Part shown: one piece after another, positions 48,901-64,000 of the stretch
Layout of the letters: the number at the start of each line of letters is the position of its first letter
Position numbering within the stretch: the stretch's first letter is position 1
Source: Macrostomum lignano
Lineage: Eukaryota
Reading direction: 5' to 3'
DNA: 64,000 nucleotides
Assembly (NCBI GenBank): GCA_002269645.1
Contig: NIVC01001307.1
Location: 1 to 64,000 of the forward strand
Position numbers and translations under genes: made by a program
The notes under the pieces: generated by a model
Database searches by the model: none
What the model saw: only the letters and a program-made list of their open reading frames with translations
What the model was told of the DNA's origin: nothing

Positions 48901-51843
48901 GATTAACTACTCATCGATAATCTAGATGGATTAACTACTTATCGATAATCCAGAAGGATTAACTACTCATCGATAATCTAGATGGATTAACTACTACTCG
49001 ATAATCCAGATGGATTAACTACTTATCGATAATCTAGATGGATTAACTACAACTCGATAATCCAGATGGATTAACTAATCGATAATCCAGGATTAACTAC
49101 TTATCGATAATCCAGAAGGATTAACTACTCATCGATAATCTAGATGGATTAACTACTACTCGATAATCCAGATGGATTAACTACTTATCGATAATCTAGA
49201 TGGATTAACTACAACTCGATAATCCAGATGGATTAACTAATCGATAATCCAGGATTAACTACTTATCGATAATCCAGAAGGATTAACTACTCATCGATAA
49301 TCTAGATGGATTAACTACTCATCGATAATCTAGATGGATTAACTACTAATCGATAATCTAGATGGATTAACTACTTATCGATAATCCAGAAGGATTAACT
49401 ACTCATCGATAATCTAGATGGATTAACTACTCATCGATAATCTAGATGGATTAACTACTCATCGATAATCTAGATGGATAACCTACAACTCGATAATCCA
49501 GATGGATTAACTAACCTATCGATAATCTAGATGGATTAACTACTAATCGATAATCTAGATGGATTAACTTCTCATCGATAATCCAGATGGATTAACTACT
49601 TATCGATAATCCAGATGGATTAACTACTTATCGATAATCCAGAAGGATTAACTACTAATCGAAAATCCAGATGGATTAACTACTAATCGAAAATCCAGAT
49701 GGATTAACTACTCATCGATAACCCAGATGGATTAACTAATTAACCAGTTATCTGGGTGGACAAATTACTACTTATGGTTAACACAATTGGATTAACTATA
49801 TTTATCGATAATCTTATTGAAAAAATTAGCCCAACTCACCGGGCCGACGCTCCCGAACTAGGCTATAATAATGCCCAGCGCTGGCCTTGCCAGAATGAAT
49901 AACAACACCAACTAAATTGTAGTTAGATGGCTGCTGCTGCTCCTGCATCTCCTGCTCTTTCTGCTGCTGCTGTTGCGGCCCGTCTGAGGCGCTGTCGCCG
50001 CTCGACGCGCCAGCAGCGCTAGCCATAAAAGGCCCCAATTCCACTCGCCTAGGAAAGCTAAAATATAAATCGGATTTCAGCGGCTGGCCGCGCAGCCAAT
50101 CGTAGTCGAATCGTTTCAAATGAAAGCACAGCACCGGAGGCAGGCTGGCTATTCTAGTTCGCCTGAGCGCTGTGACCTTCCGATTGCCGCAGCGTTCGCA
50201 CGAATAGGCGTTATCAGCTTGCATCGTTTCTCCGCGTACAAAAGCGTGCAGAGCGGCTTCCAGACTGCCGGATTGAACTGGCAGATGCAGGCCGTAGAAA
50301 TCTTCTTCAAGTTCGCAACGATGCTCGCACTGTTCGCTCTCGATCAGGTGCTTGAATCGGCCGCGAAAGAAGGCGCTTAGTAGGGGGCGCTTAGCCTGCT
50401 CGTCTGTTTGGTCAATCAGCGCCTGTTGGGTTGTTGGGGGTTCGGGACGATTAGCGAAGATAGGAGCGATTCTTGTGGGGCTATGGAGGCGATTCTTGTG
50501 GGGCTATGGAGGCGATTCTTGTGGGGCTATGGAGGCGATTCTTGTGGGGCTATGGAGGCGATTCTTGTGGGGCTATGGAGGCGATTCTTGTGGGGCTATG
50601 GAGGCGATTCTTGTGGGGCTATGGAGGCGATTCTTGTGGGGCTATGGAGGCGATTCTTGTGGGGCTATGGAGGCGATTCTTGTGGGGCTATGGAGGCAAT
50701 TCTTGTGGGGCTATGGAGGCGATTCTTGTGGGGCTATGGAGGCGATTCTTGTGGGGCTATGCAGGGCGATTCTTGTGGGACTATGGAGGTGATTCTTGTG
50801 GGGCTATGGAGGCGATTCTTGTGGGGCTATGGAGGCGATTCTTGTGGGGCTATGGAGGCGATTCTTGTGGGGCTATGCAGGGCGATTCTTGTGGGGCTAT
50901 GGAGGCGATTCTTGTGGGGCTATGGAGGCGATTCTTGTGGGGCTATGGAGGCGATTCTTGTGGGGCTATGGAGGCAATTCTTGTGGGGCTATGGAGGCGA
51001 TTCTTGTAGGGCTATGGAGGCAATTCTTGTGGGGCTATGGAGGCGATTCTTGTGGGGCTATGTAGGTGCAGCATATTTAAAGGCGATTCGCAAGGATATA
51101 CCTGAAAGAACGCGAACGCGTCCTGCTGCTCTCTCGGATTGACTTTCTCGCCCCACAGTGAGAAATTGGCCCACAATTGATCTGGCACGTAGTACTGCTG
51201 CTGCAGCTCCAACAGGTGCGCCAGCACCAGCTGCAGCTGGTAGAGGGCACCGTCGCCCGACTCGCTGCTGCCTCCGCCGTCAACGGAGCTGCCAGAGGCG
51301 GCGGTAGCGACAGTCGTTGCCGCCGTCGCAGTGTTCTGCTCGTCGCCAGCAGTCGCAGTAGGATCCGGCGTTGACAGTACAGCAGCTGCCAGGCCTGGCA
51401 CCATAAACAGCTGTTGCAGCACCGAATTCATATAGCAGGTGGCACCGCCATTTTTTAGGCCAACTAAACCGCATTGACCGCGCGGTTCGGGCGGCGCCGG
51501 CACCTCCCAGCCGTGGATTCGGTGCAGCGGCCGCAGGGCCAAGCTAAGCGCTCGAAGGCATCGGCAATTGCTGGCGCACAGCTGCAATAGCAGGTCGTAG
51601 ATGGCTGGCCGGGACAGTGGCCCGGCACGGCAGTGCGAGTCGGCCGGCATCAGGAAGGCGCCAATCAGCTGAGGCAGCAGCCGCTCGCCGGCCGAAGGGT
51701 CGGGCGGATCCGCCTGCCAGGCCGCTGCCAGCAGGCGCAGGTGACCGGCTAGCAGGGCGTCCTCCTCCTGCTGGCACTGGCAGGCCGCTGTCTGGCTTAG
51801 CTGAAAACCGGTTAGCCAGTCCTGCTCCACGCTGGCTACTCGC
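45995..51843 (-). CDS. USP24: USP24-like (USP9/24/34 group) ubiquitin carboxyl-terminal hydrolase, 3' five exons
   Basis: Exons 51843-51102, 50422-49840, 48622-47660, 47282-46457 and 46289-45995 splice in frame. Cys box GLKNGGATCYMNSVLQQLF, QQDAFAFF, His box HSGKASAGHYYSLVR, WFKMND, YWSAYMLFYER, DPRRAYRCVK and C-terminal SNET...FQRTTSAQ. The N-terminal exons are not in the window. Confidence 0.85.
46294..46450 (-). mobile_element. tRNA-derived SINE forming an entire USP24 intron
   Basis: B box GGTTCGATTCC, core CTGTACACCCTGTGTGAGC and (TAT)n tail; flanked by the 10-bp direct repeat GCCCACCTGT at 46284-46293 and 46451-46460. Confidence 0.85.
48830..49760. repeat. ~28-bp intronic minisatellite (GATGGATTAACTACTCATCGATAATCCA)
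   Basis: Tandem variable copies. Confidence 0.93.
50468..51060. repeat. 23-bp intronic minisatellite (GCGATTCTTGTGGGGCTATGGAG)
   Basis: About 25 copies. Confidence 0.95.
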
Positions 51844-52418: not shown

Positions 52419-52496
52419 CACATACACTAAGACAGACAGACGGACACTAAGACAGACAGACAGCCACTAAGACAGACAGCCACTAAGACAGACAGC

Positions 52497-52765
52497 AGTA
52501 GTATAGAAAAAGACGCTTCTAGACCCAGAGCACTTTTTTAATTACCGTTTTAAGGGTCTAGAGGGGGGACACGGGGGGTAAATAAAAAAACACATCTAAT
52601 CACCCTTAACACATCCAATCACCCATAATCACCCCTAACAATAAAAATCAATCCCAACACTTCCAAACACTCCCCAATACTCCCCTCGCGTCCCCCCTCT
52701 TAAGACCTTAAAAACGGTAATTAAAAAAGTGCTCTGGGTCTAGAAGCGTCTTTTTCTATACTACT
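52497..52765. repeat. Terminal inverted repeat/hairpin: perfect 55-bp arms 52497-52551 and 52711-52765
   Basis: AGTAGTATAGAAAAAGACGCTTCTAGACCCAGAGCACTTTTTTAATTACCGTTTT and its exact reverse complement (checked base by base); imperfect pairing extends ~30 bp further inward. Confidence 0.95.
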
Positions 52766-52822
52766 ACTCTATAACCCCTTGCCCGCGCCGCAGGCGCGAA
52801 GGGTCTTTTTCTGTTACTAAAA

Positions 52823-53137
52823 ATGACCCGAGTTTACACCTTTTCTGTTAGTGATACTTTTGAGACTGTTGCTAAAAATGCAGAGATAATAAAACAACAT
52901 ATTTTGAATGGAATAATTGATGAAGTTTATTTAAAATATGACGACAAGCACGACCTAAAACTTTATCCATTAGAGCTAGATGAGATGTATGATTTAGAAC
53001 AAGAGGGTGAGTTAATATTTCAACTTGGAGATTATTTAAATTCGGATGATTGGGAGGTTAGATCAACAGATTCCGAATCAACAAATAGTTCATATGAAAC
53101 CAGTGATTCAGAGAATGAAAGTGAAATTTTTATGTGA
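52823..53137 (+). CDS. Hypothetical acidic viral protein (104 aa)
   Basis: ORF with TAAAAATG start and an acidic S/E/D tail; no motif recognised. Confidence 0.6.
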   Translation: MTRVYTFSVSDTFETVAKNAEIIKQHILNGIIDEVYLKYDDKHDLKLYPLELDEMYDLEQEGELIFQLGDYLNSDDWEVRSTDSESTNSSYETSDSENESEIFM

Positions 53138-53153
53138 AAAAAATATTTAAAAA

Positions 53154-53378
53154 ATGAACTATTATTCTATAACAGAAACGACATTTATTGTGAAAAATAT
53201 ATATAAAAAAATGAAGGTAAACTATTCCTACATCGGAAATGTTCCAATTAATGAACTTAATGAAAATTTAAGTTTGATAACAGTTGAACAAATGTCAATA
53301 ATAATATTAGTAACAATTATAGTAATAATATTGTTTTTGTTTGTAATAAAAAATTTACTACCATGTTGTCTTAAGTAA
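53154..53378 (+). CDS. Small viral membrane protein (74 aa)
   Basis: C-terminal hydrophobic helix IIILVTIIVIILFLFVI followed by PCCLK. Confidence 0.6.
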   Translation: MNYYSITETTFIVKNIYKKMKVNYSYIGNVPINELNENLSLITVEQMSIIILVTIIVIILFLFVIKNLLPCCLK

Positions 53379-53388
53379 CTGTTTGAAC

Positions 53389-54991
53389 TTAGTTCGCAGA
53401 CATTATCTGGTTCTCATAAAAAGAACCCAATATTTCTTCACCGTCCTTATCAGCAATTATATAGGTTGTAGGATTGGTATTTAAAACTTTACTGATAGTA
53501 AATTTCTCACTTATCTTCCAATATCCTTTTCTTCCTTTTTCAAACTTATCTTTCCATTTATAGATATAAACAGAATCACCAACCTTAAAAGATTTCTTTT
53601 TATTTTTTTCAAATTTTCCAAAAGTAACTTTAACTTTTTCAGGATTGTTATAAGCTTGTTGAGGAGTCATCTTTATAGCTGAATGATATGAATTGTTATA
53701 ATCTTTCACTACGTCTGGTAATATTTTTACCCACTTTTGGTTACCATTAAGACTAAACTGAAACCATAATTTCTTACCTAAAGTTCGATTAAATCTTTCT
53801 ATTAATGCGTTTTTACTCTCTCCATAAATAGAATAAATTTTATTAATATACTCCCCATTCGCGTCTTTTTTCCTTTCTTTTCCTTTTTCAAAATGATACA
53901 ATTTATACATATGAGGATTGTAAAATTCTTTTCCTTCATCAACACACAATCTTTCGCTTTTTTCTCCAAGACTTCTAAAAGCAGCAGCAACCTCCTCTCC
54001 CTTTTTGGATTTTAAAGGAACAGCCCACGCGTATCGAGTAAAACCATCTAATATGGTTAAGATATATTTATATCCTCTTTCGTTCGGCATCGACATTAAA
54101 TCAGCATACCAAATTTCATTCTTTTTGAAGTTCATGATTTTTCTATAAAATTTAGGTTTTCGATATTCTTTATGAAGAATCTTTGCCTCATCAGAACTTA
54201 ACCCACCACCACTTAATAATAAACACTCGACACAATTATTTCCATGTTGATTATAATTAATTCCCAAACCAAATTTAACTTTAGACTGCAAAATCTTTTT
54301 AACCATCCACCTAGTTAATCTTTGCCCTACCGATAATCCCTGCAAGTTATCTAATCCTTGAATCATTTTTTGATCGGCTTCATGTTTTAATCTTAATGCT
54401 TCCTCGGGCGGGTTCTTGTCAGCATCTCTATATGCTAAGTCGTGATAGTATGCTAACCAATCAATCCCATTTATTGGAATTGAATCAGATTTTGGAGTAT
54501 TGTCAGGATTTAATCGGAGATCGAGTCGAGTCAACCCGGCCTTTATACCTTTGCTTTCACAAAGGAGTAGACTGTGTCTTAAGCTATCATAAGGATTGAC
54601 TAAGTCCTTCAAGCCCACCAGCGTACAGTCGTTGCATCTCAACCATACTCAAGTCATATGAGGTTAGGTTTTCGATTCACTCTTGCCCATATATTTATCT
54701 TCAAGCTTGTTACCGTTGGGAAGAGGAGTTACCTCTGTTCCTTTGTAATCTTTCGAAAACAAAGTGGTACTTGAAGCTTTAGGGGATTGAGTGAGCGGCT
54801 GGTGTTGCCACTAATAGTGACTAGCAGTAGCTTTGCATCTACCACTCGGGCACAGCTCGAGCTCCACCCGCGAAGTTGTAAGATGGGATGTGTAATTCAT
54901 TTGTATACCTCCCAGTAGTAAAGATTGGTGGTAAGCTTGTTAATCCTTTTTGAACATCTAACAATCCTCCATCAAACACAAGTTGGTTCAT
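53389..54991 (-). CDS. PLA2 (parvovirus VP1u-like) - retroviral-type integrase fusion, 425 aa after group I intron removal
   Basis: Exon 1 54991-54866 encodes MNQLVFDGGLLDVQKGLTSLPPIFTTGRYTNELHIPSYNFAG. Exon 2 54540-53389 encodes AGLTRLDLRL...PINGIDWLAYYHDLAY...ADQKM (PLA2), then the DDE core WYADL / LCVDEGKEF / IERFNRTL and an SH3-like C-terminus FKVGDSV. The ORF-track start at 54642 lies inside the intron. Confidence 0.9.
54541..54865 (-). ncRNA. Group I self-splicing intron (IC1-like, 325 nt, no internal ORF)
   Basis: 5' exon ends in U and the intron ends in G. Helices: P1 CGGGU/GCCCG, P3 CACCAGC/GCUGGUG, P4 UCACUC/GAGUGA, P5a CUUCAAG/CUUGAAG with A-rich bulge, P5b with GAAA loop, P5c AGAGG/CCUCU, P6 AUC/GAU, P7 GACUGU/ACAGUC, J8/7 AAGAC, P9 CCUUUG/CAAAGG with GAAA loop. 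Excision restores the frame. Confidence 0.92.
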
Positions 54992-55475
54992 TTTTAATGT
55001 TTAAAAAACATGTTTCTATCAATTTAATAATTTCTAAATATTGATCACCATATAAAAAATTTAAAGCAAATTCCCCAGTTAACAAGGTAACTCCATTATC
55101 AAATACTTTTTGTACGGGGTTTTTAGTAGTATTATTAATGCAAATATAATATAAATCAAATTCGGGATTAACATATTTAAATTCTAATAACTTTTGAATA
55201 TTTCTAAATCGACTTGATGAATTATCTGTGTTATCAGAAGATTTTAACTCTAACGCAACTTTTCTTTCTGTATGAATTAAATCAATTTTATTTACTTTTT
55301 CAAAACCAAAATGTTTAATAGCTAATAATTCATAAAGATATCCAAGTCTCATTTGAATTGTTTTAATACGGTTTGCAATTATTAATTCATCTTGAAATAT
55401 CTTATTTAGTATTCTGTCAGAACCAGCCTTATCATAAATAGGTTTACAAAGACAATCTTTTATCGTATTATCCAT
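54972..55475 (-). CDS. PD-(D/E)XK endonuclease, Eco47II-like restriction-enzyme fold (167 aa)
   Basis: KTIQMRLGYLYE helix followed by IDL...ALELKSSDNTDNSSS (D...ExK). The family assignment is from recalled motif resemblance only. Confidence 0.6.
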   Translation of the reverse strand: MDNTIKDCLCKPIYDKAGSDRILNKIFQDELIIANRIKTIQMRLGYLYELLAIKHFGFEKVNKIDLIHTERKVALELKSSDNTDNSSSRFRNIQKLLEFKYVNPEFDLYYICINNTTKNPVQKVFDNGVTLLTGEFALNFLYGDQYLEIIKLIETCFLNIKNEPTCV

Positions 55476-55498
55476 TTTATAAAAAATAAATTTAACAA

Positions 55499-56176
55499 TT
55501 AAACACCTGTATGTCCAGCAGCTTTCGCAGCAGCTAAAACAAGTTTTCGCGGGGTTTTAAATCCATCACCAACAGCTGGTTTGTTATTTATAGAATTTAC
55601 AATCCATTTATACAAGCTGGTATTTTTAACAGCTCCTCCTAACTCATTATAAAAAATTTTAGCACTTACTAATTCATCCTTAGTATATAAATCCGGGTTA
55701 AATTTTACCCTAGGGTTCATAATAATATTATATGCTCCACCCAATTCTGTATATAGTTCATTTCGATCTTTATCAACGTTACCAATTCGATAATTATTAT
55801 TACCTAAATCTGTAACAGCAATACTAGGTGGTACTCTTGGAAATTGTTGCCGATCAACTCCACCCCTAATCTCTTCAGCCCTAATCTCTATAACTCTCAA
55901 TTGTGCTTGAGCAACACCATAAGCAGGCGGCTCATCATCCAAAATTTCATCCTCTTTTGGCTCAGTATTTTTAGCAATTTTTTCCAGAAGATCTTTATCT
56001 GTTTTTTCTAGTTCACTAATTTTCCCAGTAATAGGATTAACAAAAGGAGCAGCAAATCTTTCGCCAGCTAATTGTATTCCTAACTTTCTTTTTTGTAAAT
56101 TTCTAACAAAATCAGAATATCTTTGCTTCTCTTTATAAATCGCTAACTCTCCATCAACGTCCATAAATTGACTCAT
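55499..56176 (-). CDS. Polinton-type hypothetical protein (225 aa)
   Basis: Divergent from the MCP gene; PFVNPIT and C-terminal LVLAAAKAAGHTG resemble a conserved Polinton accessory/core protein (weak recall). Confidence 0.55.
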   Translation of the reverse strand: MSQFMDVDGELAIYKEKQRYSDFVRNLQKRKLGIQLAGERFAAPFVNPITGKISELEKTDKDLLEKIAKNTEPKEDEILDDEPPAYGVAQAQLRVIEIRAEEIRGGVDRQQFPRVPPSIAVTDLGNNNYRIGNVDKDRNELYTELGGAYNIIMNPRVKFNPDLYTKDELVSAKIFYNELGGAVKNTSLYKWIVNSINNKPAVGDGFKTPRKLVLAAAKAAGHTGV

Positions 56177-56210
56177 TTTTTAACATAAAAAACTTTTTTA
56201 ACTTAAAAAA

Positions 56211-57683
56211 ATGGCTGAAACAAAAACTATGTGGAGTGATAAATTTCATTTCAAAAAGCACCGACAGTATATTAATGAGGTCAGAGCAAGAGATTTAAAT
56301 TATACCCTACCAACAAGTGATAATTCAAATAACTTTACTACTGGAACGGTAACTTTTGACATCGGCGCAACCAACACTATATTGGATATGAAAAATGCGT
56401 TTTTCCGCGTTAGATGGTTGTATACTAGAAATGATGGAACTGCTCTTGCAGCCGGAGATATCGCAGATCGATCCAGAATAATAATAGAAAATGATTGGTT
56501 TTATAAATGTTTTTCCCAAGCTCAACTAACTGTTAATGGTGCTGAGGTTGAGACATCATCAAACCCCGCAGAGATTAATGGAGTTTTGAAACATTTAAAT
56601 TATACTTATTTATCAAAACAAGTTGGTGATAATGTTGGGTGGATGCCGGATAAAGGTAACGGGCAAGCAGTAGTTTTCCCTAATGTACAAAACGCAGCCG
56701 GTGCAGATACTGCAGCGCTAATTGTTTACCTTAATACAAACATAGTTCCAGTTGTAACCACTATGACTAATACAAAAGATATTAATACTGGTTTTATAGA
56801 TCGTCAGAATAAATTCCCAGTCGCGGTTTTAACCACAGCAACAGCATATGAGCAGGACTTTTCAATCTTTCCACTATTTGGGTTTTTCTCACCAAATCGG
56901 GTATGGAAAGGATTAAAATTTGGGATACAGTTGCAAATATCTGGTGGATATCAGCCTAGGATACTTTATGGAACCTCAATTTCAACCGATATAGCAGTTC
57001 GTATAGATTCAATTCAATTAGTCGTACCAACTATTGAGGTAACAGCCCCACTTTTAAAACACATCGATAATCAGTTAACGCATGATCAGGAAATATTTTA
57101 TTTGAATCGTCGACATTTTATGCGAACCATTAATAATAACCAGGATTCATTCCAGTGGCAAATACTGACATCAAAACGTCGGGTGAGATATATTTTTGTT
57201 TGGTTTAAGATAACAAATAGAAGGAGTAAAAGAGCAAATGGGGATTTATATTGGCTTCAATCCGGTGCCATAGCAGAACAAGCAGCCACCGCAACAGACA
57301 ATGCGGCTGCAGCTATTAACGAGTTTAATGTTCAGAATATCCGCCTGCAGGTTGATGATCAATATTATCCGGTTAAAGACCCCCTAAATTTAAATATAGC
57401 AAATAATAATGTTAATGATTTTATAAAATATTATCAAGATTATGCTAAAAATGAAGCGTATGCCGTCCCTCAGTACACACCCACAGAGTTTCTAAACATT
57501 CATCCAGTGGTTGTTTATGATCTAACGGCACAGAAAGAAAACGTAGCCAATATTGGACTTAATTATATGTTAGAGATTAATAAAACCGGTAATCAGGCAC
57601 TTGACGCCCACGTATTGTTTCTAGAGGAATATATGTCAATTGCTAAAGCTGATGGCACGATTGTTCGGGACGCACCATTGTAA
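56211..57683 (+). CDS. Major capsid protein (double jelly-roll, 490 aa)
   Basis: Size, beta-rich composition and Polinton MCP-like motifs VTFDI, ENDWFYKCFSQAQLTVNGAEVE, VRYIFVWF, VQNIRLQVDDQYYP and VVVYDLTAQ; position next to the ATPase and penton genes. Confidence 0.85.
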   Translation: MAETKTMWSDKFHFKKHRQYINEVRARDLNYTLPTSDNSNNFTTGTVTFDIGATNTILDMKNAFFRVRWLYTRNDGTALAAGDIADRSRIIIENDWFYKCFSQAQLTVNGAEVETSSNPAEINGVLKHLNYTYLSKQVGDNVGWMPDKGNGQAVVFPNVQNAAGADTAALIVYLNTNIVPVVTTMTNTKDINTGFIDRQNKFPVAVLTTATAYEQDFSIFPLFGFFSPNRVWKGLKFGIQLQISGGYQPRILYGTSISTDIAVRIDSIQLVVPTIEVTAPLLKHIDNQLTHDQEIFYLNRRHFMRTINNNQDSFQWQILTSKRRVRYIFVWFKITNRRSKRANGDLYWLQSGAIAEQAATATDNAAAAINEFNVQNIRLQVDDQYYPVKDPLNLNIANNNVNDFIKYYQDYAKNEAYAVPQYTPTEFLNIHPVVVYDLTAQKENVANIGLNYMLEINKTGNQALDAHVLFLEEYMSIAKADGTIVRDAPL

Positions 57684-57734
57684 AATGAGTGCAGGTCTCC
57701 GACCGTCGCGCCTATTTAAATTATTTCTTTAAAA

Positions 57735-58525
57735 ATGGTAAAGGCAAAACACGATAAGATATTTCCAAATGATCCTTTTCTTTGTTTAGTAATTGGTGGG
57801 TCGGGTAAAGGAAAAACACACTTTGTTTATGACCTGTTAACAACCGATGGAATGCTAGACTATAATAATTTAATAATTTATACTAAAAAACCTAGAATAA
57901 AATATTATGAATTTCTTAAAGATGGATTAAAAAACAAATTAAAAAAAGATGTCTTGTTTAGAATGTTAAGAGCATATGAGCAATATGAGGATGATGACGA
58001 ACCGCGATTTAATCTAGCAGACATTGAGGATTTATGTAAAACAATGGCACAACAGCCAGAAAACATCACCGATCGCCCGAAGGGTCGCGGACTTCGTCCG
58101 ATCGAGCCCCAACTGTTAGAGTATCAACCCGATTAGCCTATGATCAAATTCCAAAACATGATAAAACACTAATTATTTTTGATGATTGTATTAATGACGG
58201 TGATCAAGAATTGCAAAAGGAAATTTTTGTTAGTGGTAGAGGAGATGGAATTGGAGCTTTTTATCTTACTCAATCCTTTAGAGAATTAGAATCGATTATA
58301 AAAAAGAATGCTAGCTGTTGTGTAATGTTTGATTTAGATAACTATGATCTACAAAATATTCACGCTAGATTTAATCCCGGATTGGATGCAAAACCATTTA
58401 AAAGTATGTGTAAAAAAATTTGGGATGATAGCCAATACAAACATATTTATATCAATCCGAGGTTAGAAAGGAAAAATCGAATCTTAAAAGATCTTATAAA
58501 AGAAGACGATGAGGAAGAAGAATGA
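57735..58525 (+). pseudogene. A32/FtsK-type DNA packaging ATPase, frameshifted
   Basis: Walker A GGSGKGKT in 57735-58136; Walker B LIIFDDC, GR and TQS in the -1 frame up to 58525. Removing the 29 nt between CGATCG copies (58070, 58099) restores the frame. Confidence 0.88.
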
Positions 58526-58576
58526 TCGCCCCATAGGGTCGCGTACCTTCGGTACGATTAATTTCCCACTATAAAA

Positions 58577-59362
58577 ATGACTACAAATTTAAATACTATA
58601 AAACAATTGGTAGATCGAACTAATTCAAAATTTAGTACAACATTACAGTTTATAATGACAACCAGCGAGCAACGGATTCAATTGCGCGATCCATTACAAC
58701 TTGATCAAAGCCTAAGTTATCAAATAGGTTTAATACTATTTTCGGTTTTCAACATGCCTCAATTAATTAATGCAACAAATAATCAATTTAGATATTCTAA
58801 AGATTCCGGAGCAAATTGGACAACATTTAGCGTTAACCCAGGAGCGTATAGCTATACTGATTTGAATGCTTATATAGAAGGAGAATTAACAACTAATGGT
58901 GATTGGGTAGCAGGAGCAATTGTTATAGGTGTTGATTTACCGTCTGGCAGATTCACACTATCACTAGGATCCGGATATCAGGTTGATTTCACAATTGCAA
59001 ATTCACTCAGAACCATACTTGGATTTAATTCCCGAATAGTTACCACATCAAGCACCGGTGATACAGTTGGAAATATAGAGGGTGGAGTAAATACAATTAA
59101 TATAACAACCGACATTTCAAACGGTGGTTATATAACAGACGATAACGGAGTTTTGGTTCAACGTGGAATTATTTATTCAATCCCATTTCTTGCTGTTCCA
59201 ATTGGAGAGAAAATGATTGTATCACCTCAAACCCCAATATATTACCCATTAAATCAATATAATGTTCAATCAATTTATATTAGGATTGTAGATGAAAGCG
59301 ATAGATTAATAAGTTTTGGTGGGCAGTCAATAACAGTAATTTTACGTATAAAACAGGTTTAG
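58577..59362 (+). CDS. Minor capsid protein (penton, single jelly-roll, 261 aa)
   Basis: Polinton penton-like pattern: NNQFRYS, GAYSYTDLN, ILGFNS, INITTDI, IIYSIPF, IYYPL, IYIRIVDE...ISFGGQSITVILRI. Confidence 0.8.
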   Translation: MTTNLNTIKQLVDRTNSKFSTTLQFIMTTSEQRIQLRDPLQLDQSLSYQIGLILFSVFNMPQLINATNNQFRYSKDSGANWTTFSVNPGAYSYTDLNAYIEGELTTNGDWVAGAIVIGVDLPSGRFTLSLGSGYQVDFTIANSLRTILGFNSRIVTTSSTGDTVGNIEGGVNTINITTDISNGGYITDDNGVLVQRGIIYSIPFLAVPIGEKMIVSPQTPIYYPLNQYNVQSIYIRIVDESDRLISFGGQSITVILRIKQV

Positions 59363-59372
59363 TACTGTAAAA

Positions 59373-59552
59373 ATGGGTAATAATAATAATAATTTAATAA
59401 AAAAACAATCAGAAAAAGTTAAAAAAACTGAAGATAATTACGAACTAGAACTAGCAAAATTAAGGCAGTTACAAGCTGATAAAATAAGAAAGGAATTGTT
59501 AAAACCCACACCTACGAAACTAACTAAAACCAAGAGTTTTTCAGGAACATAA
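59373..59552 (+). CDS. Small basic protein (59 aa, MGNNNNN...; below the ORF-track cutoff)
   Basis: TAAAAATG start; fills the penton-protease gap exactly. Confidence 0.5.
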   Translation: MGNNNNNLIKKQSEKVKKTEDNYELELAKLRQLQADKIRKELLKPTPTKLTKTKSFSGT

Positions 59553-59553
59553 A

Positions 59554-59988
59554 ATGACCATGACGTGATGATTTTAAACAAAGATATGGAACGGACACAA
59601 CAAGCAATATCGAATTAACAAATTGGGCGAGGCAGTTAAAAATAAAACCATTCAGATGTGTTATGCGGGATGAGATAAAAGACTTACCAAGATATGGATC
59701 TTTCATTGTTAATATTGAAACAACAAAAGAAAATGGTGTTCATTGGTCAGCAGTTTATTCAAAACCAAACTTGTTTATTTTTTTGATTCATACGCGCTTC
59801 CTCCGTTACAGGAAATAAAAGATAAATTTAATCATACTAAAAATCGTTTATGTGGAGATCATCACGAACAATTTCAAACCTTTGATAAAAGTTATTGCGG
59901 GCAAGCGGCGTTGTATTTTTTATATAAAATTAATAACTCGAAGGAAACCCCCGAAGTATTTAAGAATATTTTAGACTCTATAAAATAG
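59554..59988 (+). pseudogene. Adenain-like cysteine protease, two frameshifts
   Basis: NGVHWSAVY (His), YFFDSY (Asp) and QFQTFDKSYCG (Gln/Cys); frame breaks at ~59563 and ~59763 (A run). Confidence 0.85.
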
Positions 59989-59998
59989 ACAGTAAAAA

Positions 59999-62046
59999 AT
60001 GTTATTTTCTGGAACACCCTCATGGAACGGAACAACAAGTAGTGGTGGTGGTGGCACATCTGGTGGAATAAGTGTTACATTTGGAGATAATCGATATATT
60101 AATGAAGATGAAGGTTATAAAAAAAGTGAAGTTGATACTAAACTAAATTTAAAAAGAAATGTTGCAGATTCCTATACCAAAACTCAAATAGATGATTCAC
60201 TAAATCTGAAACGGAACGTAGCCGATTCCTATACCAAAACCGAAGTTGATAATTCATTAAATTTAAAACGCAATACAGCCGATTCTTATACCAAAACCGA
60301 AGTTGATAATTCATTAAATTTGAAACGGAACGTAGCCGATTCTTATACCAAAACCGAAGTTGATAATTCATTAAATTTGAAACGGAACGTAGCCGATTCT
60401 TATACCAAAACCGAAGTTGATAATGGATTAAATTTAAAAAGAGATGTAACTGATTCTTATTCTCGAACTGATTCTGATTCACGTTATGTTCAAACCACCG
60501 CAACCGGAAACCTAGATATGAGCAACAACCGAATTATAAATGTTTCAATTACAACTAGTGATTCAGTGGTTGATAAGAACTATGTCGATAATCAAGTTGC
60601 CACTCGTAGTGGAAATATTAATATGAATAATTTTAAATTAACAAATTTATTATTTGGAACAGAGAACGCAGACTCGATAACTCTAGGCCAAGTAAACGAG
60701 CGAGCTAATGCAACCGACGCCGATATTTTTACCACGCCGCTTACATCAAATACTTCAAATCCTGATGTTGTTCTTACAGCATCTGAAAATGGCAACACAG
60801 CTTTTCGAGTTGGAGATGGAAGCCTTGCGACACAATGGTCACCAAATACCGGAACCACAACCAATATGGAAATTCAATTTGAATTTTTAGGTTATAATAG
60901 AAGAATATTTGAATTAAGAATTACAGGCAGTGAAACAATTGAGATACCCTCGGGGTGGTCGGTTCGCGCAAAAAATGTTGCTACCGATTCATGGACGACA
61001 TTAACTACGTCGGGATCACCAGTTCAAGCAACATCATTTGCTCTATCTAATTTAACGACTAATTTTTGGAAATATTATAGCGTATTCTTCCCAACTGGTG
61101 GTACCGGTACACAACCTATCGAGGTTCGTCAAATACAATTATTTGAACACCGTGTTGAAATTCAAGATCTTAATTGGCCAACTCAAATACTTTCTGCAGT
61201 TCCGCGAGCGTACGTAGATCAGCTAGCTACTCCAACATCAAATGGTAGAATGTCTGGAAGCGATAAAAATAAATTGGATGGAATACCTGCTATTGATGCG
61301 GCCTTGTTCGAACCAGTAATTTGCAATTGGTCTGGATATCAAAATCCAACAACAGCCGGAGATATATATCCAGTCGGTTCTTTAATTAGCGATGCTTCTT
61401 ATATCGATTATCAAAACGGCGCTAGAATTACTCGTGAAACTTCTGGAGTAAGTGGTGCTTTACAATTCAATTTCACACATTTTCAAAATATATCTGCGTC
61501 TTTCTTTTTCCGAGTTGCTAATTCTACAGGAGATGGTGCAGATGCGGTTTGGTTTTATGCATATCGTCACGAACGTCCAACATCGGAATTTGGAACTGGA
61601 TTATCAACCGACGCCGGCTGATAGTGTTTGCTAGTGAGTGGACTGATAGGTTTGGAGTTGTTTGGAGTAATAAAAAATCAGACGGATCTACGGTTCGTAA
61701 CGATGTTAGTAGTGATGCGGATCAAACTGTAGCCTATGCTAATATTGATAACGGTGATTGGCATTTATTTGAAGTTAATATTTTAAATCAAAGGGTTTGG
61801 TACCGATTACAGTCATACAATGTTGCTGGTGATTCTTTTACCCTCATTGGACAGAACGTTTTCACATATGATAGTGGAACTTGGGGAACTTTAGATAAAT
61901 CTGGAACCCTTATGGGTTTTGGTGCTCGAACTGGTGGAGCGGATGCTGCACATTTTATTCGTGGTGCAGTTGTATGTGGTAGTACGTCGTTTGGTTATGT
62001 TTTTCCCTCTACTGCTTATTTGGAAAAACCTCCTACTCAAATATAA
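59999..62046 (+). CDS. Fiber/receptor-binding-like protein with 19-aa repeats, discoidin-like and L-type lectin-like domains; one -1 frameshift at ~61617
   Basis: Tandem SYTKTEVDNSLNLKRNVAD; tail-fiber-type LDMSNNRIINV/KNYVD repeats; lectin-like GDGADAVWF...GDWHLFEV...GFGARTGG split across ORFs 59999-61621 and 61549-62046. Confidence 0.7.
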
Positions 62047-62077
62047 AATATTTATATATAAAATATTTCTATATAAA

Positions 62078-62377
62078 ATGGCTTTTAGTAGAACTCCATC
62101 GATGCGGCAAAATAATGTTATTATTCCTATTCCTAAACAAGAATCAAATATAAAAACATTCAAATCTCATACCAAATTTTTATTTAGTACTGTAAATGTT
62201 CAGGATAATAAGAAGCTTCAAGAATTAATTAAGTTATTAAAAAATCATATTATACTTCAAGAGTTTTGGAAAATAGGATTTAAATGGGAGAAAAAAGAAA
62301 GAATAACTCCAATACAATACCTATTGAGCTCGGGACAAATCCCAAAGAGCGTGGGGAATTCATTTTGGTGCTATTAA
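62078..62377 (+). CDS. Hypothetical viral protein (99 aa)
   Basis: TAAAATG start within ORF 61919-62377. Confidence 0.45.
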   Translation: MAFSRTPSMRQNNVIIPIPKQESNIKTFKSHTKFLFSTVNVQDNKKLQELIKLLKNHIILQEFWKIGFKWEKKERITPIQYLLSSGQIPKSVGNSFWCY

Positions 62378-62389
62378 AAATAGACGAGA

Positions 62390-62950
62390 ATGTCGGTATC
62401 TGAAGCAGATAAATGGGAACGCGACCGGTTCAACCAACGTAAAGGTCAGATGTTAAGTAATGTTGATCGTAAACTATGATTATGATTTATATACTAAAAA
62501 AGTAAGAAGAGTTTCAAACCATATAAGAAATATGGATTTTTCAATATTGGATTTGGAAGCTTATCAATGTTATGTGTAATCGTTTTAGGTATTTTACAAT
62601 CTATTCCAACTCTTAATTTATCTCAATTATTTTTAGGTATTTCAATTGGCTCAATATCAGGTTTTGAATTGATCAGAACTTATCAATACTTTTAGCAATT
62701 AAATTATATCTTAAAAAAAGAAAGGAAAAATATAAATCATTAAGAGATGTTGCCAACAATATAAAAATCATTATATTTATATGTGCAAAAAATATTGGAT
62801 GACGGAGAGATAACGATTCATGAATTATCAACCGCGGTTGAATTATATGAAAAATATTTAAAAGATAGAAATAGAATTTTAGATGTTGAAACTTTTACCG
62901 ATATGGAATTAAAAGAATTAGTTTGGACAAACCCAAAGCTCCACCGATAG
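62390..62950 (+). pseudogene. Frameshifted two-TM Polinton accessory protein
   Basis: Fragments KPYKKYGFFNIGFGSLSMLCVIVLGIL...FLGISIGSISG and KERKKYKSLRDVA...QKILDDGEITIHEL lie in different frames. Confidence 0.4.
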
Positions 62951-63054
62951 AAACATTAGGTATTTACGAACCTGAAACTATTGCTACTGGGGCACAAAGC
63001 CCGCGGTCAGGAAGTGCTGTAGAACTTAATGTGTTTACGTAATCATTGTTGTAT

Positions 63055-63535
63055 TCAGTATTTTAATGCATATGTTATATATTCTTCCCAAAGTGGTAAC
63101 TCTCTTCTGATTCTAGGTTTAAATTTTTTATCAATACATAAAAATTCCAATGACTTTTTCAATAACATTTCGTTAGGTATGTTACCTATCCTTATAAACT
63201 TTGTATTCTCTCGAATAAGAAAATTGAAATAATATCCAACTAAAATTAAAATCCTTTCAGAGTCTTTCGAACTTAATCCCTTTCCTTTATTTAAATGGAA
63301 AAAGTTATTATATAAATAAACATTATTTCCGGGAATTAAAATTGGATCAGAAATGTCTCTTGTAAGATTTCTTAAAATTGTGTTTTTAAAATAGTAATAT
63401 GAGTTTTCAATCTTTTTTGTTTTTTCAAATTGATATATTTTAGAACATGAATAACACATATGATATATATCTCCGTTTGCTGTTTGCCCTCTGTGCATAG
63501 TCACATTACATTTATTACACGTAAATGTCTTTCAT
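63055..63535 (-). CDS. Hypothetical protein with N-terminal zinc ribbon (1-nt frameshift near the start)
   Basis: CNKC (upstream of the ORF-track start) and CYSC pairs; AAAAAATG at 63535 is out of frame by 1. Confidence 0.45.
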
Positions 63536-63558
63536 TTTTTTTATTTTTTAGATTAAAA

Positions 63559-63750
63559 ATGGAGAGCTGGTTCAAAACCGATTCTAATGTGATTAATTAT
63601 CTCACACCCAATATGTTGGAGAATAAAGAATATAATATTATATGTTTGAGACAGGTTAAATTTATTGGGCTTCAATCAATATTTTTACAATTAGATGGGC
63701 AAAAAATTTTATGTCTAAGCGGAGATGATGTTAAAATTTTCCTGTTTTAG
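63559..63750 (+). CDS. Hypothetical viral protein (63 aa)
   Basis: TAAAAATG start, divergent from the previous gene. Confidence 0.4.
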   Translation: MESWFKTDSNVINYLTPNMLENKEYNIICLRQVKFIGLQSIFLQLDGQKILCLSGDDVKIFLF

Positions 63751-64000
63751 TTATTAATAAACCTAAAGCGTTTGTTATGAAATACTGCAACGAGGGTGGA
63801 TTGCAATTTAAACTAAAACAAACAAATAATAAAAAGAGTGATAGGACTGTAAAATTGGCGGCTGTTTGGGAGGATGACGACGAAGACTAAATTTTTTATA
63901 AGAAAATGGATACGATAAAAATCCTTATCACTAAAGAGCGTGAACTTAATGATATTAATAAAAAAATAAATATAATTATATCTCAGAAATATCATGAGTA

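Follow-up and report, generated by a model that had tools for sequence, protein, structure and literature searches.

A restriction-type nuclease as the probable homing enzyme of a neighbouring group I intron in Polintons of Macrostomum lignano

The window, a stretch of 64,000 nucleotides from a contig of Macrostomum lignano (NIVC01001307.1, assembly GCA_002269645.1), carries a small nuclease gene directly before a gene that is split by a group I intron, raising the question of whether the nuclease spreads the intron or restricts foreign DNA. The original prediction proposed collaborative homing, in which a free-standing nuclease and an intron without an open reading frame (ORF) act as one selfish unit. 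Our analysis partly supports that reading. The nuclease, a restriction-type PD-(D/E)XK enzyme with no recognisable methylase in its element and a predicted GGNCC cutter, is probably the homing enzyme of the neighbouring intron, because these Polintons are devoid of GGNCC except at the Gly-Pro codons that the intron splits.

The nuclease gene, the intron and the element that carries them

The features of the locus are collected in Table 1. The minus-strand nuclease ORF (55475 to 54972) overlaps by its last 20 nt with the PLA2-integrase gene, whose ATG is at 54991, and it ends 106 nt before the 5’ splice site (after 54866), in agreement with the overlap and the distance of about 107 nt that had been predicted. 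The predicted nuclease motifs were also present in the 167-aa product, with the catalytic residues D65, E76 and K78 at least 90% conserved among 102 aligned relatives. The sole Pfam match of the window nuclease was RE_Eco47II (PF09553; E=3.9e-5), at 23.8 bits against a gathering cut-off of 25.9. The close relatives P0005 and P0006 passed that cut-off, and 31 of 34 scanned relatives, a subset of the 181 found at E<=0.001, also matched RE_Eco47II at E<=0.01. The AF2 model (pLDDT 95.1) is a single domain of 167 aa with no extra DNA-binding module. With this model, the first restriction-enzyme matches in Foldseek were EcoO109I (TMq 0.64-0.66) and AvaII, and EcoO109I was the top match of a wide structural search (Z 9.9, rmsd 3.8, 164 residues aligned; next row Z 6.4) at 13% identity to the window nuclease. 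PDB sequence searches yielded nothing useful, an NCBIfam scan gave no match and a BFVD fold search returned weak nuclease matches only. Judged from its model, the nuclease has the PD-(D/E)XK restriction fold that had been proposed, in an Eco47II-like form with a D...(E)xK motif. The dN/dS values of 0.23 within family A (15 distinct copies), 0.41 within family B (12 distinct copies) and 0.11 from one family to the other (families defined below) indicate that the gene is real and under purifying selection.

Table 1. Features of the Polinton and its nuclease-intron locus in the window
Feature	Position	Strand	Basis or remark
Polinton, family A, no GGNCC	52494..64000		Terminal inverted repeat, capsid-type genes, A32 ATPase, protease-like gene; reaches contig end
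Exon 2, encoding the catalytic part of PLA2 (YYHDLAY) in fusion with rve integrase	53389..54539	-	Pfam rve E=1.1e-7; open frame
ORF-less group I intron, window-type variant	54540..54865	-	Core helices, covariation, Rfam on sister introns
Internal guide sequence, pairs with exon 1 end (P1; U-G pair at splice site)	54845..54851	-	Read from sequence
Exon 1, PLA2-rve integrase gene; its last codon, GGT (Gly), is the 5’ half of the split site	54866..54991	-	Aligned with natural intron-less alleles
Eco47II/EcoO109I-like PD-(D/E)XK endonuclease gene, free-standing, 167 aa	54972..55475	-	Predicted GGNCC cutter
Conserved 225-aa gene, upstream boundary of nuclease slot	55499..56176	-	No convincing family match

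Eco47II and Sau96I cut GGNCC. Because the Pfam score of the window nuclease falls below the cut-off and its identity to EcoO109I is low, we treat its GGNCC specificity as predicted. The recognition sites of the fold neighbours EcoO109I and AvaII are RGGNCCY and GGWCC, respectively (PMC12944874). From these neighbours and the loss of the site described below, we infer a short palindromic (Type IIP-like) GGNCC target.

The insert in the PLA2-integrase gene is a group I intron (RF00028), as judged from a P3/P4/P6/P7 core, covariation and the G-binding pair. The window’s own variant had no Rfam match at E<=1, and all six sister introns scored 61-89 bits with RF00028 (cut-off 50). The window copy kept the core pairs (P3 7/7, P4 6/7, P6 2/2, P6a 4/4, P7 6/6 and P9 7/7) and fits all helices once P4 is moved by one column; it holds no nuclease ORF, as had been claimed. 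Over 21 aligned introns, 91.2% of the cells of P3, P4, P6, P6a, P7 and P9 were paired and 20 of the 33 pairs showed two-sided changes, a level that was reached in 0 of 500 shuffles and compares with 40-53% in slid controls, although the structure was drawn from the same 21 sequences so that the controls favour it. The guide sequence and the exon also co-vary between intron variants.

Natural intron-less alleles place the insertion between a Gly codon and a Pro codon. Three candidates were found for the 3’ end of the window intron (54541, 54540 and 54532), each ending in G, so that the predicted end at 54541 stands only as one of three. The candidate homologous to the ends of the sister introns, 54540, is out of frame; 54541 and 54532 are in frame and both lack Gly-Pro. 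The intron-minus substrate that had been proposed for cleavage assays has to be replaced: it contains no GGNCC and a genome search for a natural intron-less allele of the window-type variant gave 0 matches, whereas the natural alleles carry Gly-Pro across the junction. Exon 2 upstream of its first Met had a pN/pS of 0.09 among 12 distinct window-type copies, a low value that could alternatively come from recombination with other copies. Four presumed-RNA runs examined with the window and four with a main-type copy yielded no joint at the intron, and such contigs cannot show absence. The window-type intron, present at 24 family-A loci, is remodelled in the P1/P10 region, P4 and P7 and has an ambiguous 3’ end, its homologous 3’ site being out of frame in all delimited copies. 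The terminal nucleotide of 140 delimited introns was G in 71 and A in 69, the usual end being G. The terminal-A introns of family A (for example L007, L040 and L023) keep the P7 G-binding pair unchanged. CCC comes next in 63 of the 69 family-A introns that end in A, and CCG in 23 of the 25 that end in G, a pattern that may reflect linkage or compensation through P10.

We take YYHDLAY to be the PLA2 catalytic motif, on which our labelling of the split gene is based. That label is also supported by the PLA2 genes described in PMC8502044, the available text of which mentions no such intron. The element is AT-rich and begins at a terminal inverted repeat near 52494. By sequence matches it is a Polinton/adintovirus, with pPolB, rve integrase, DJR capsid, A32 ATPase and terminal repeats; the Pfam matches of its sister copies are to pPolB, DJR capsid and A32 ATPase, and those to pPolB and DJR come from these copies and not from the window copy. 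The end of the element (52494-52768) is a long terminal hairpin made of an 85-nt inverted repeat with a 105-nt spacer, at which an Rfam match to MIR8643 (37 bits against 135) was attributed to chance. The ATPase and protease-like genes (57735-58525 and 59564-59988) each lie in two frames, pointing to decay or assembly error, and the Polinton adjoins host exons of a ubiquitin-specific protease (Pfam UCH) and simple repeats (49826-51650). Family-B elements (L194:7247-9742 and L197) encode a D5-like primase-helicase in addition to pPolB; in both families, the pPolB region also gives a match to Endonuclease VII.

Loss of GGNCC and the contents of the slot

The window element (11.5 kb) contained no GGNCC where 14.0 were expected, which made it the most depleted among 256 comparable words, and the host part of the window (52.5 kb) held 97 sites (O/E 0.68). 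Fourteen stretches of families A and B held 5 GGNCC sites against 184 expected, the word ranking first of 256 in all 14, and the Gly-Pro dipeptide was absent from the same stretches (0 against 61 expected); these stretches, with or without intron or nuclease, represent two families, are not independent samples and have bounds set by eye. Five control stretches from two other Polinton families had 118 sites against 152 expected (O/E 0.63-1.02), with Gly-Pro present. Mild depletion was seen in control family C (a third Polinton family; L273-L278 and L283-L284; O/E 0.63-0.75), which is possibly an occasional target of the cutter. The near-complete loss of GGNCC in both families suggests continuing selection. 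Elements with neither intron nor nuclease were as fully depleted, and in these any GGNCC cutter in the population would explain the loss without homing.

A Gly-Pro codon pair always spells GGNCC. At 14 of 14 intron-less loci GGNCC lay exactly on the insertion point, and 13 of them had no second site between the matched genes; among the 149 intron-plus loci, 145 were free of GGNCC. An intron-less element thus offers essentially one target, at the insertion point, where the Gly-Pro pair is apparently required and not recodable. The predicted target is present in the intron-less allele and destroyed by the insertion, which is the hallmark of a homing endonuclease site.

The nuclease gave 102 matches in the host genome (764 Mb), many of them fragments, and many chromosomal copies are broken. 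We collected 170 loci by nuclease or PLA2 similarity, and therefore not at random, of which 166 had exon 2; another four nuclease loci, whose stretch lacked exon 2, are not counted among the 62 scored. In family A, to which the window belongs, 37 loci combined the intron with the free-standing nuclease and 87 combined it with another slot gene; the remainder comprised three intron-less loci with another slot gene and two loci lacking exon 1. Family B, about 60% identical, comprised 25 loci with the nuclease inside the intron, 11 that were intron-less and had no nuclease, and one lacking exon 1. The family-B nuclease sits in the P2.1 loop and reads into the intron core, and 28 of 28 scored Rfam group I matches overlapped family-B nuclease matches. 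The nucleases of the two families are about 60-66% identical, and the flanks of the site differ between the families.

Every scorable nuclease locus had the intron (62 of 62), as expected if the two co-occur; the converse did not hold, since 87 of 124 family-A introns stood without the nuclease. Within family A the link was not significant (intron-less loci 0 of 37 with the nuclease and 3 of 90 without; Fisher p about 0.35, calculated by hand). A genome-wide pattern search recovered 22 intron-less alleles (control 0), and the nuclease was within 1.5 kb of none of the 22. Every family-A intron subtype occurred with both slot genes, from which it follows that the parts reassort. The predicted module therefore stands as a free-standing nuclease beside an ORF-less intron at the predicted target (37 family-A loci) but not as a fixed pair. 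In family B, as in a metagenome contig, the same enzyme is encoded within the intron.

The alternative slot gene is mostly a weakly identified HNH/EndoVII-like ORF of 190-210 aa, with PHROGs matches to EndoVII (E=0.001) and HNH (E=0.0027), no Pfam nuclease match and no homologue at E<=0.001; its single-sequence model was left out (pLDDT 44). At most family-A loci the slot upstream of exon 1 (for example L044:1286-1852) holds the restriction-like gene, the HNH/EndoVII-like ORF or an ORF of 153-155 aa, and all three alternatives share the same short boundary sequences. In three loci with an intron-internal nuclease (L145, L157 and L160), a 14-nt inverted repeat flanks the ORF and extends P2.1, and the ORF is preceded by an AT motif like that of the family-A slot.

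Flanking letters were compared in family B. The letter of the intron-less alleles occurred in 0 of 22 intron-plus copies at positions -6, -4, -1 and +3, and in 8-10 of 22 at -30 to -40. The fixed differences by the site are also P1-paired positions and so need not reflect co-conversion; the mosaic flanks would fit break-induced conversion, confounded with P1 pairing. The 19 surviving family-B intron-less alleles share flanks that are unlike those of the intron-plus copies.

Relatives of the nuclease and methyltransferases

In one metagenome locus (L241) the same nuclease lies inside a group I intron that splits a PLA2-integrase gene at the same codon pair, and the C-terminal tails of P0001 and P0008 resemble a translation of the intron core. 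Most of the other metagenome and viral loci (L240 and L242-L250, L240 and L249 being the same stretch) lie beside a C5 methyltransferase, and 4 of 4 tested matched PF00145. Scans of viral contigs with the window protein and with the L241 exon gave nothing, and a scan with the A2 alignment gave one locus. The original prediction saw no methyltransferase, and none was recognised in the 17 proteins of the window element or in 56 ORFs of sister elements; the unannotated ORFs that remain might include an unrecognised modifier. All 12 PF00145 matches in the genome were on contigs other than those with nuclease matches. With no linked methylase found, the nuclease does not qualify as part of a Type II restriction-modification (R-M) system.

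In the trees, family A was sister to family B (85-87 bootstrap), and the two fell within a clade that holds the intron-borne P0001 and P0003, apart from the methylase-linked forms; the window’s own sequence was included in one of the two trees. Monophyly of the intron-borne forms was not rejected (p-AU 0.067), which leaves escape from the intron as the favoured but tentative direction. The tree comparison leans towards the free-standing state being derived rather than ancestral.

Proposed action, alternatives and known systems

In the mechanism that we propose, the enzyme would derive from R-M pairs of the giant-virus type, with subsequent loss of the methylase. Loss of the site would provide self-immunity, and a methylase-free GGNCC cutter could be tolerated because the element has lost the word. 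The intron would remove the last site from the DNA, and splicing would restore the reading frame. Should an intron-less relative share the nucleus with a replicating element that has both intron and nuclease, the relative would be cut once and repaired from the intron-plus copy, and the intron would be copied. This would amount to classical homing in family B and, in family A, would carry along the nuclease gene, which lies about 100 nt upstream, by co-conversion. DNA with many sites, such as that of other Polinton families, other viruses and possibly the host, would be fragmented by the same activity; given the number of sites in the host part of the window, integrated copies would have to be silent. 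Competitor exclusion is a likely second effect of the enzyme.

Site loss alone does not separate homing from restriction, and the persistence of the 22 intron-less alleles is a point against homing. It could be argued that the enzyme is a weapon only, with the intron as an immunity patch and the intron-less relatives eliminated rather than converted by a cutter that destroys competitor or host DNA. The short site, the loose coupling of nuclease and intron in family A and the loss of GGNCC from whole elements, even from those without nuclease or intron, would all be accommodated, as would the kinship with giant-virus R-M pairs, which have been proposed to exclude co-infecting viruses (PMC7253447). 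Such a weapon would leave unexplained why the gene lies inside the very intron that splits its site (family B and L241), why the slot beside the site is otherwise held by an HNH/EndoVII-like gene and why the flanks are mosaic, and we consider this explanation unlikely. At a still lower level of probability we place a classical homing endonuclease with a long site, for which GGNCC would be only the central part of the target and the depletion of this word a relic of an older restriction system. The intron-encoded position resembles that of I-Ssp6803I (PMC3384342), and the shared, distinct flanks of the 19 family-B intron-less alleles look as if these had escaped a longer site; however, the modelled enzyme is a single 167-aa domain with no additional DNA-binding module, the loss of all GGNCC in both families is near-complete and suggestive of ongoing selection, and families A and B, for all the similarity of their enzymes, have different sequences around the site. 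Indirectly, the single-domain model and the site loss favour a 5-bp restriction-type site over a long homing site, so that homing and restriction are probably two effects of one enzyme.

An inactive or unrelated passenger gene that lies next to the intron by chance would fit the many broken chromosomal copies and the exchangeable content of the slot. We regard this as very improbable: dN/dS is 0.11-0.41, the catalytic residues are conserved, the predicted site coincides with the insertion point and at least two organisms have copies inside the intron.

The recognition sites of homing endonucleases are 14-40 bp long. Our preferred reading, that the nuclease is the homing enzyme of the intron, has its closest counterpart in phage collaborative or trans homing, in which F-CphI with the psbA intron and T4 mobE with the nrdB intron likewise pair a free-standing nuclease with an adjacent ORF-less group I intron and have the target at the insertion site (PMC2988022, PMC11296320); as here, an intron-encoded version of the same pair also exists. 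The M. lignano system differs in that the enzyme belongs to a restriction-enzyme family, has a predicted 5-bp rather than long site and resides in an integrated eukaryotic element, the uniqueness of its target would come from loss of the site elsewhere, and the tree leans towards the free-standing form as the derived one. I-Ssp6803I also has a restriction fold and is encoded in a group I intron, but it is a tetramer of PF11645 with a target of 17-23 bp (PMC3384342, PMC3424549). It was not among the matches of Foldseek or of the wide structural search, an absence that does not exclude kinship.

The fold, the catalytic motif and the predicted GGNCC core are shared with Eco47II (PF09553), EcoO109I, AvaII and the giant-virus R-M pairs; unlike these Type IIP enzymes and R-M pairs, the window nuclease is shorter, is linked to an intron and has no recognised methyltransferase in its element. 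Immunity through a lack of sites has its nearest precedent in PacI, also a solitary restriction enzyme without a methylase. PacI has an 8-bp rare site, an HNH fold and a place in a bacterial chromosome, with no intron or homing described (PMC3488263), whereas here the word lost is a frequent one of 5 bp, and a dipeptide was given up with it. Polinton-like viruses of protists are also known to have RF00028 introns (about 300-380 nt) in their protein genes; these introns differ in their hosts (Paulinella, Desmodesmus and Rhodomonas), in lying in a short gene before the capsid gene and in having no annotated endonuclease in the account available (PMC12220804). Abundant nucleases of unclear role have been noted in these viruses, with collaborative homing raised for replicases only in the part of that report available to us (10.64898/2026.10.13.758929). 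The accessible portions of 10.1101/2023.08.22.554363, PMC2441816 and PMC4081073 contained nothing on this system, and we found no published description of the nuclease-intron system in a literature that was mostly open and without supplements (tables of PMC12220804 and PMC8502044 could list such elements).

Compared with known homing, what would be new, on a somewhat favourable balance of the evidence, is a restriction-type short-site cutter made single-site by purging the site from the element. With similar, fairly guarded confidence we suggest a case of methylase-free restriction in an integrated eukaryotic virus, in which a 5-bp cutter is tolerated through loss of the site and of Gly-Pro, the intron takes the place of the methylase at the single non-recodable site, a restriction enzyme has become a single-site homing endonuclease, and intron-encoded and free-standing states coexist in one genome. 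If so, a restriction enzyme could turn into a homing endonuclease in a simple way, with no need to evolve a long site, since the specificity would come from the target genome, and the intron would have a direct role in immunity. Both sides of the proposed transition between free-standing and intron-encoded nuclease would be visible in one enzyme family at one site, and under this mechanism Polintons would have to encounter one another in the nucleus and recombine there while replicating.

Words other than GGNCC were also scarce in these elements. CCNTG/CANGG was among the five lowest words in 7 of 9 family-A stretches (O/E 0.17-0.52), CTNAG had an O/E of about 0.4-0.5, and TCGCGA occurred 0 times against 24 expected in pooled, related family-A copies. 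These further depleted words may mark other nucleases.
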